From NCBI RefSeq assembly GCF_002854065.1, contig NZ_CP024147.1: a DNA stretch of 64,000 nucleotides; one strand, given 5' to 3'. Under the pieces are notes generated by a model that did not search any database, had not been told where the DNA came from, and saw nothing but the letters and a program-made list of their open reading frames with translations. This DNA comes from Escherichia coli (GTDB lineage: Bacteria > Pseudomonadota > Gammaproteobacteria > Enterobacterales > Enterobacteriaceae). Positions within the stretch are counted from its first letter, which is position 1, and the number at the start of each line of letters is the position of its first letter. Of this stretch, positions 9,034-9,858 are shown in pieces. A program made the position numbers and the translations under genes.

Positions 9034-9858
9034 ATGGAAGTCAACAAAAAGCAGCTGGCTGACATTTTCGGTGCGAGTATCCGTACCATTCAGAACTGGC
9101 AGGAACAGGGAATGCCCGTTCTGCGAGGCGGTGGCAAGGGTAATGAGGTGCTTTATGACTCTGCCGCCGTTATAAGATGGTATGCCGAAAGGGATGCTGA
9201 AATTGAGAACGAAAAGCTGCGCCGGGAAGTTGAAGAACTGCGGCAGGCCAGCGAGACAGATCTCCAGCCAGGGACTATTGAGTACGAACGCCATCGACTT
9301 ACGCGTGCGCAGGCCGACGCACAGGAGCTGAAAAATGCCAGAGACTCCGCTGAAGTGGTGGAAACCGCATTCTGTACTTTCGTGCTGTCGCGGATCGCAG
9401 GTGAAATTGCCAGTATTCTCGACGGGATCCCCCTGTCGGTGCAGCGGCGTTTCCCGAACGGCACGGTCGATGTGTTCCGCGGCTGGGTCAGCAGTATCGG
9501 TAAGGCGGTGACGGCGAAGGAAGTGATTACCCGCACGGTGAAAGTCACCAACGTAGGACGTCCGTCGATGGCAGAAGATCGCAGCACGGTAACAGCGGCA
9601 ACCGGCATGACCGTGACGCCTGCCAGCACCTCGGTGGTGAAAGGGCAGAGCACGACGCTGACCGTGGCATTCCAGCCGGAAGGCGCAACCGACAAGAGCT
9701 TCCGTGCGGTGTCTGCGGATAAAACAAAAGCCACCGTGTCGGTCAGTGGTATGACCATCACCGTGAAAGGTGTTGCTGCAGGCAAGGTCAACATTCCGGT
9801 CGTATCCGGTAATGGTGAGTTTGCTGCGGTTGCAGAAATCAACGTCACCGCCAGTTAA
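9034..9858 (+). CDS. Chimeric ORF: terminase small subunit Nu1 N-terminal ~143 aa fused in frame to the C-terminal ~130 aa (Ig-like Big_2 domain) of major tail protein V
   Basis: Residues 1-143 match lambda Nu1 ([42 protein letters not shown]...VQRRFP); from ~144 the sequence is lambda gpV C-terminus ([18 protein letters not shown]...[10 protein letters not shown]); junction near 9460. Confidence 0.85.

Follow-up and report, generated by a model that had tools for sequence, protein, structure and literature searches.

An in-frame nu1'-'V fusion in a DLP12 prophage remnant of Escherichia coli, probably a scar of prophage decay

A DLP12-type prophage remnant of Escherichia coli carries an open reading frame (ORF) in which the 5' part of the terminase small-subunit gene, nu1 (nohD in DLP12), continues without interruption into the 3' part of the tail gene V. 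The remnant lies in the stretch of 64,000 nucleotides that we analyzed (contig NZ_CP024147.1, hereafter the window), and the coordinates of its features are collected in Table 1. We conclude that the chimeric ORF, nu1'-'V, is very likely a neutral in-frame scar of DLP12 decay and that it is most probably without a selected role. According to the history that we propose, a lambda-like prophage (DLP12) at argU would once have carried the full late operon, and a single 8,675-bp deletion would have joined nu1 codon 140/141 to V codon 112/113.

The ORF listing gave one uninterrupted frame of 274 codons with an ATG start. Residues 1 to 141 of its product were identical to NohD/Nu1 of the undeleted DLP12 of E. 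coli RM14723 (141/141), and residues 142 to 274 were identical to residues 114 to 246 of V from the same strain (133/133). An earlier note on this DNA had put the two parts at approximately 143 and 130 residues, which was close; the alignments correct these lengths to 141 (Nu1) and 133 (V). Its description of the N-terminal part as Nu1 with a winged helix-turn-helix (HTH) was borne out by matches to PDB 1j9i (residues 1-68, E 8.9e-39) and PDB 6hn7 (residues 1-98, E 4.8e-58, with two substitutions relative to lambda), and Pfam placed Phage_Nu1 (PF07471) at residues 1-145 (E 1.7e-88), the match ending at model position 148 of 164. The C-terminal part proved to be V including its Ig-like domain, as the same note had proposed: PDB 2l04 matched query residues 186-274 (E 4.6e-43), Big_2 was found at residues 189-267 (E 4.7e-20), and the full V structure (PDB 6p3e) was also among the PDB matches of the fusion. 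Phage_TTP_12 was matched at residues 135-180, which correspond to model positions 90-135 of 135 only, i.e., the last third. Domain content was read directly from these Pfam and PDB sequence matches; an NCBIfam search with the chimera returned no family, and AlphaFold2 run on the fusion as a single sequence without an alignment gave a mean pLDDT of 44.5, too low for the model to be of use.

Table 1. Coordinates of the nu1'-'V fusion and associated features in the window.
Feature	Position	Strand	Content or basis
DLP12-type cryptic prophage remnant beside tRNA-Arg	457-11852		99.97% identity to the annotated 100416 locus; RM14723 comparison
Prophage cos: cosN (8845-8856, GGGCGGCGACCT) and cosB with R3, R2, R1	8845-9033	+	Alignment to lambda bp 1-190
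Chimeric nu1'-'V ORF, 274 aa	9034-9858	+	Open ORF; protein identity to NohD/V; Pfam and PDB matches
nu1/nohD-derived part, codons 1-141	9034-9456	+	Winged-HTH DNA-binding domain (~residues 1-68) and central helical oligomerization region; PDB, Pfam, NohD alignment
Deletion junction, CGTTTCCCGAAC	9448-9459	+	Three-way comparison with L008 (RM14723) and lambda; overlapping BLAST alignments
V-derived part, V codons 114-246 and stop	9457-9858	+	Last ~43 tail-tube-domain residues, then complete Big_2 Ig-like domain
Second scar, G' ORF, 116 aa (G codons 1-79 and 37 out-of-frame codons)	9874-10224	+	Alignments; TIGR01674; PGAP pseudogene

The small terminase subunit of lambda (TerS) consists of an N-terminal winged HTH that also dimerizes, a central helical oligomerization domain, and a C-terminal region of ~40 residues that binds the large subunit, TerL (PMC9026076). 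The cosB-binding winged-HTH domain is present in the fusion according to PDB and Pfam, and the identity of residues 69-141 to RM14723 NohD indicates that the central helical oligomerization region is present as well. The ~40-residue region for large-subunit binding is absent, Nu1 residues 142-181 having been deleted, and gene A, directly downstream of nu1, was lost inside the 8,675-bp deletion; no large-subunit feature is annotated at the locus. The fusion therefore cannot act as a terminase subunit. On the V side, the C-terminal Big_2 Ig-like domain is kept (Pfam, PDB 2l04) and the complete tail-tube domain (~residues 1-156) is not; because 113 of its ~156 residues, the first ones, are missing, the fusion is unable to build a tail tube.

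The parental sequences, the junction, and the size of the deletion could be read directly from alignments. BLASTN against lambda matched window 8845-9459 to lambda 1-617 (97.1%; cos and the first 427 nt of nu1), window 9448-10110 to lambda 9285-9947 (96.4%; the 3' part of V and the 5' part of G), and window 10110-10262 to the end of the side-tail-fiber gene and the start of tfa. With the undeleted DLP12 of RM14723 (locus L008), window 8483-9459 corresponded to L008 10338-11315 (98.6%; ylcI-cos-nohD') and window 9448-10110 to L008 19979-20641 (99.85%; 'V-G'). Measured against RM14723 the deletion amounts to 8,675 bp, and against lambda to 8,679 bp, in good agreement with the ~9 kb from A through most of V that had been claimed, and the lost segment comprises the last 40 nu1 codons, A, W, B, C, nu3, D, E, FI, FII, Z, U, and the first 113 V codons. 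Pairwise alignment to nu1 and V, which the note had suggested as a check, fixed the junction and established that the C-terminal half is V-derived and that no frameshift breaks the single ORF. The two sets of alignments overlap by 12 nt, within the short homology CGyTTyCCG(G)AAC where the junction had been placed; 9 of these 12 positions are common, with a 2-bp perfect crossover.

At the junction the parental sequences are GCGTTTTCCGGAAC (nu1) and CCGCTTCCCGAAC (V). The codons read CAG CGG CGT TTT CCG GAA CTG in nohD, AAA ATC CGC TTC CCG AAC GGC in V, and CAG CGG CGT TTC CCG AAC GGC in the window. In the three-way comparison the T of CGT is specific to nu1 and the C of TTC is specific to V, so the crossover occurred in the shared TT of the Phe codon, at nt 420-423 of nu1 (aa 140-141). 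Both genes encode Arg-Phe-Pro here in the same register (CGT TTT CCG versus CGC TTC CCG), so that a crossover anywhere within this homology would keep the frame; the open frame is a by-product of where the homology lies and hence is not evidence of selection. Alignments to L008 and lambda revealed no foreign, inserted, or mobile DNA at the junction. As in a short-homology deletion, there is an undeleted relative (RM14723), the shared sequence is kept once, and nothing has been inserted. We infer that the deletion arose by illegitimate recombination at this short imperfect homology, which could have involved either replication slippage or microhomology-mediated end joining.

The exact 274-residue protein is already public (AUJ95195.1 and others) under the name "terminase small subunit." Its UniRef cluster contains 21 Enterobacteriaceae entries, near-identical copies are labeled Shigella dysenteriae, and 172 index blocks of public assemblies contain the protein, among them a complete chromosome, a 4.7-Mb contig, and contigs from metagenomes. 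Several drafts of independent origin also have the junction, as do a metagenome scaffold from ENA and the IMG/VR contig L076; among 5,426 complete E. coli genomes the junction occurs in one, that of strain 100416. A search of the literature on nohA/nohB/Nu1 and on prophage microhomology deletions found nothing specific. Repeated prophage sequence might produce such a join as an assembly or sequencing artifact, for E. coli genomes contain several near-identical lambdoid late regions (a median of four matching places), and draft contigs do break nearby; however, the identical junction in a complete chromosome, the 4.7-Mb contig, independent drafts, the ENA scaffold, and the IMG/VR contig rules this out to the point where we give it virtually no weight. 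The many identical open copies (172 blocks) and the lack of any frameshifted variant count against a neutral scar, although recent common descent could also explain them. Variants in the 90% cluster had single substitutions or one four-residue deletion and none was frameshifted, in a sample too shallow and clonal to tell constraint from recent descent.

Several lines of comparison place the fusion in a decaying prophage. The window is 99.97% identical to a chromosomal stretch of E. coli 100416, a stool isolate from The Gambia, with which the remnant shares its integration site and gene order, and it is collinear with the DLP12 of RM14723 apart from deletions. These sequence comparisons identify the element as the DLP12 cryptic prophage, located at tRNA-Arg (argU). 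Its gene order is intD, rusA, ylcG, quuD, porin gene, essD-rrrD-rzpD, GIY-YIG gene, ybcV-like gene, ylcI, cos, and nu1'-'V, followed by G', tfa, a ybcY-like methyltransferase gene, and tfaX', and then by IS1, appY, and ompT. The annotation of 100416 lists tRNA-Arg, intD through the lysis genes, the GIY-YIG gene, a DUF1398 gene, ylcI, the fusion locus, tfa, the methyltransferase gene, and tfaX', with appY, ompT, envY, and nfrAB downstream. The full-length DLP12 of RM14723 (NZ_CP027103.1) occupies the same site as that of the window, between the DLP12 early genes and appY/ompT, and holds nohD, A, W, B, C, D, E, FI, FII, Z, U, V, G, T, H, M, L, K, I, J, lom, stf, and tfa; no head or tail gene is missing, Z and J carry frameshifts, and the late region of the window equals this one minus 8.7 kb, 12.6 kb, and ~1.8 kb. 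As judged from the alignments, the parental arrangement survives in RM14723 at the same site, and the window matches both sides of the gap. A second scar joins nt 237 of G to the last 126 nt of the side-tail-fiber gene at window 10110, with ~12.6 kb deleted; TIGR01674 covers residues 1-79 of G' only. Relative to RM14723, a third deletion has taken out the pin region, which there separates tfa from the methyltransferase gene. These second and third internal deletions, one of them out of frame, and the IS1 at the locus are signs of general decay.

Other differences from these relatives were observed along the element. The last 41 tail-fiber codons survive at the second scar in another frame and have no start codon (window 10110-10235). 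The IS1 (11853-12620; 768 bp with a 9-bp target duplication) lies just past the tfaX' fragment and is absent from 100416; several related draft assemblies break at its position. An IS2 with InsC and InsD ORFs (15112-16440), also absent from the otherwise 99.9% identical 100416, is inserted ~23 nt into the ompT coding sequence and has probably inactivated this outer-membrane protease gene in the window strain. The early region of the window copy, too, is heavily deleted relative to RM14723 DLP12. The block ren-emrE-ybcK-ybcL-ybcM-ybcN-ninE-ybcO is missing (window ~1620-2590 versus L008 1-5600), and so the prophage multidrug transporter gene emrE is absent from the window strain at this locus. 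Between the lysis cassette and cos lies a 132-residue GIY-YIG/T5orf172-type nuclease gene (6867-7265, plus strand), in place of which RM14723 DLP12 has a bor/iss lipoprotein gene; its weak PADLOC match was to the candidate defense family PDC-S57 (E 4e-6), and from its sequence it could be a free-standing homing-type nuclease.

NohD of E. coli K-12 (DLP12, 181 aa) belongs to the same gene family, prophage, and chromosomal site as the fusion, and both it and K-12 NohA are remnants of lambdoid late operons after internal deletions. NohA (Qin, 189 aa) is itself a fusion, composed of Nu1 residues 1-176 and 13 out-of-frame residues from a tail-fiber gene (P0098). In K-12, the DLP12 deletion begins inside A, so that NohD is full length there; the deletion in the window, in contrast, runs from nu1 codon 141 into V and keeps a V-G' fragment that K-12 lacks. 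The two remnants decayed along separate paths, and neither could have given rise to the arrangement seen in the other.

The native nu1 start and the upstream cos region had been described as retained, and this was the case: no base differs from lambda in cosN or in the repeats R3, R2, and R1 to which Nu1 binds, positions 1-72 of cos are identical, and all mismatches fall outside the R repeats. This perfect conservation of cos and the R repeats is a second point against a neutral scar. Since cos is directly upstream of the ORF and identical in cosN and the R repeats, a translated fusion would have a binding site adjacent to its own gene. Transcription of nu1 in lambda is confined to the Q-dependent late operon, and the gene is not known to have a promoter of its own. 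No dedicated promoter was found for the fusion; the one consensus match, upstream of cos, was within the shuffled background. Translation would need read-through of the QuuD-dependent late transcript, and the predicted product would consist of a self-associating Nu1 fragment able to bind cosB, an unfolded linker, and the Ig-like domain.

Such a product might work as a decoy: by binding cosB and self-associating without recruiting TerL, it could poison or misdirect the packaging of lambda-specificity phages in a manner like that of the Rpp proteins of PICIs. The case for this function is one of architecture, in that the DNA-binding and oligomerization regions are kept and the TerL-binding tail is lost; Rpp resembles a shortened TerS (PMC9026076), PDB 6hn7 matches fusion residues 1-98, and the ORF is intact in many assemblies. 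Rpp proteins are TerS-like winged-HTH proteins, 30 to 40 residues shorter at the C terminus, that heterodimerize with TerS (PMC9026076), and Rpp (PDB 6hn7 complex) and the fusion would appear alike in having a TerS-like winged HTH, a helical dimerization region, and no TerL-binding C terminus. Whereas Rpp is encoded by a dedicated gene beside the PICI cos in an inducible island and has a changed DNA specificity, the fusion joins an unaltered piece of Nu1 to part of a tail protein and lies in a decayed prophage, not in a PICI, and the likeness is architectural only. The only match in PADLOC-DB was to mad1 (a 60-residue MADS profile) at fusion residues 1-55 (window 9034-9198, E 2.4e-11), which is a domain-level HTH match and as such suggests that the MADS component mad1 is a Nu1-like HTH protein; no full-length PADLOC match and no partner genes at the locus provide a defense-system context. 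Further points against a decoy are the lack of a dedicated promoter, the rarity of the junction among complete genomes, the probable destabilizing effect of an orphan tail-tube fragment, and the positions of nu1 breakpoints in general, which show no clustering that would delete the TerL-binding region (the most frequent, at aa 169, costs only 12 residues). We regard a working decoy as very unlikely.

It has also to be considered that only the distal part is a gene, so that a 96-residue Ig-like protein would be made by itself from fusion Met179 (9568-9858) and the upstream nu1 fragment would be dead. PGAP annotates the locus of 100416 in this manner: the 274-residue ORF is not called, and in its place are a "terminase small subunit" pseudogene (9034-9528) and a 96-aa "Ig-like domain-containing protein" (WP_375156540.1). 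An AGGA is located 9 nt upstream of the ATG, and the Ig-like domain is an independent folding unit (PDB 2l04 construct, query residues 186-274). The same ATG and AGGA, however, are present inside every intact V gene, and V is not known to have an internal start; moreover, no stop codon separates nu1' from the ATG, so the split is a convention of annotation, and a separate distal gene is highly improbable. The pseudogene call of PGAP and the presence of the junction in 1 of 5,426 complete genomes count for the reading of the fusion as a neutral scar. The result is an annotation clash, in which GenBank and UniRef have a 274-residue "terminase small subunit" where RefSeq has a pseudogene and a 96-residue "Ig-like domain" protein.

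Fusions of this kind are numerous. Approximately 100 of the best 120 homologues were other ORFs that start with Nu1 and continue as something else, with A, B (portal), protease, E (capsid), FI, the region upstream of U, U, V, J, Lom, stf/tail fiber, tfa, and int as partners, some in frame and some not; this variety of partners indicates that such ORFs arise routinely, in or out of frame. Three of them, P0011 included, were read in their genome context; each proved to be an internal deletion in a different lambdoid remnant, with the lysis genes and cos retained. The fusion shares with Nu1-Lom (P0079), Nu1-J (P0040), Nu1-U (P0033), Nu1-tfa (P0046), and P0011 an internal deletion that has its left end in nu1 and leaves cos and the lysis genes in place upstream, and on these sequence comparisons nu1'-'V is a further example of a scar type common in E. 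coli. P0011 is an independent fusion of Nu1(1-169) to V(138-246) that has kept the Ig-like domain as well, and a second Nu1-V fusion with this property is a third point against the neutral reading. Most Nu1'-X fusions have their left breakpoint at nu1 nt 506-510 (aa 169-172), whereas that of the fusion described here is at nt 420-423, and the site in V to which it is joined recurs only in contig L205.

The position favored by the other fusions is a sharp, one-sided deletion hot spot at nt 506-510 of lambdoid nu1/nohD (L008 11394-11398, ...GATGAACTGATA/CCGGGGTTG), 11 nt before the start codon of A. Within these ~5 nt lie the left ends of at least 25 independent deletions, whose right ends are scattered over late-gene sites in A, E, FI, Z, U, V, J, lom, stf, and tfa (for example, L010 7001-7735, L011 7001-8440, L013 7001-7837, L017, L045, L055, L098, L116, L125, L205, and L207). 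In the protein list, 49 clusters with ~25 different right partners break after Nu1 residue 169 and 27 more at residue 168 or residues 170-172; among representatives of 50%-identity clusters, 17 of ~48 N-terminal Nu1 fusions end at residues 169-173. A set of 120 viral contigs, chosen solely for having the first 26 nt of nu1, included 23 that break within 2.5 kb, six of them (five distinct events) at nt 506-509. With 60-nt probes, complete E. coli genomes contained 5,942 copies of nt 448-507 versus 5,636 copies of nt 478-537, from which it follows that ~306 nu1 copies stop at the hot spot, and the break density at nt 506-510 was ~200-fold above that of the rest.

Several causes of this hot spot were considered and rejected. 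A hairpin was discarded because no DNA structure is predicted at nt 506-510 (DNA fold z +0.5 and +0.9). A symmetric double-strand break does not fit, since none of 152 loci anchored in gene A had a right-hand end at nt 507-520; the process thus keeps the left flank only. Selection was set aside because breaks elsewhere in nu1 and throughout A persist too, and so no narrow window is selected. Chi, Pin/Hin crossover sites, a cosN half-site, the IS10 target, Type I-E/I-F PAMs, and restriction sites, compared by eye through their consensus sequences, did not fit the exact break position. TA occurs just before the junction in 16 of 25 right partners, as in nu1 (CTGATA/CCGGGG). Left ends at A nt 169 (L008 11578; L031 and L035) and nt 245 (L008 11654; L053 and L108) each have two different right partners, and right ends in Z (L008 ~18754-18758), stf (~32448-32458), and tfa (~33480-33487) are each reused with two or three left partners.

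The junction of nu1'-'V does not fall on this major hot spot, and the idea that it did was downgraded in view of the ~13 truncated copies found there compared with ~306 at nt 507; its site (aa 139-141) is at most a minor hot spot. A fragile site in nu1 could nevertheless have directed the break, through hairpin-stimulated slippage or hairpin cleavage, and such a process would concern the formation of the fusion and be compatible with its being a neutral scar. A 7-bp perfect inverted repeat, GTTTTCC-N6-GGAAAAC, is present at L008 11304-11323 with its left arm at the junction, and the DNA fold there was -10.3 kcal/mol (z -2.3), but with so short a hairpin, and with 2 of 200 shuffled sequences folding equally well, this is suggestive rather than strong. 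According to the protein list, ~11 different partners break at Nu1 aa 139-141 versus ~9 across the 27 residues 142-168; that list is blind to breakpoints before ~aa 136. The V-side breakpoint, CTTCCC/GAAC, recurs in the unrelated inversion junction of L205, whereas the 30-nt interval containing the junction is the end point of only ~13 of ~5,900 nu1 copies in complete E. coli genomes, and the only break there in the sample of 120 viral contigs was the same event. Taken together, a directed break at this site is possible but doubtful. L205 itself (IMGVR_UViG_2923323785_000006) has L008 19019 (+) joined to L008 19986 (-) with the microhomology GGGAA, and its V-side end lies a few nucleotides at most from the point at which V is broken in the fusion.

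As a neutral scar, nu1'-'V provides a clean, fully reconstructable case of the birth of an in-frame chimeric ORF during prophage decay. Because its cosN and R repeats match those of lambda, the DLP12 cos might be a place where a lambda-specificity terminase of another phage could cut the chromosome. If truncation of nu1 were instead a non-random process, either site-specific or host-protective, the fusion would be a working cosB-binding decoy and not junk; we think this very unlikely, but if true, a crippled Nu1 may shield the host from terminase cutting at chromosomal cos or from infecting lambda-like phages. The fusion alone matters little, and it is the wider pattern of Nu1'-X breakpoints that could inform how prophages are disarmed.
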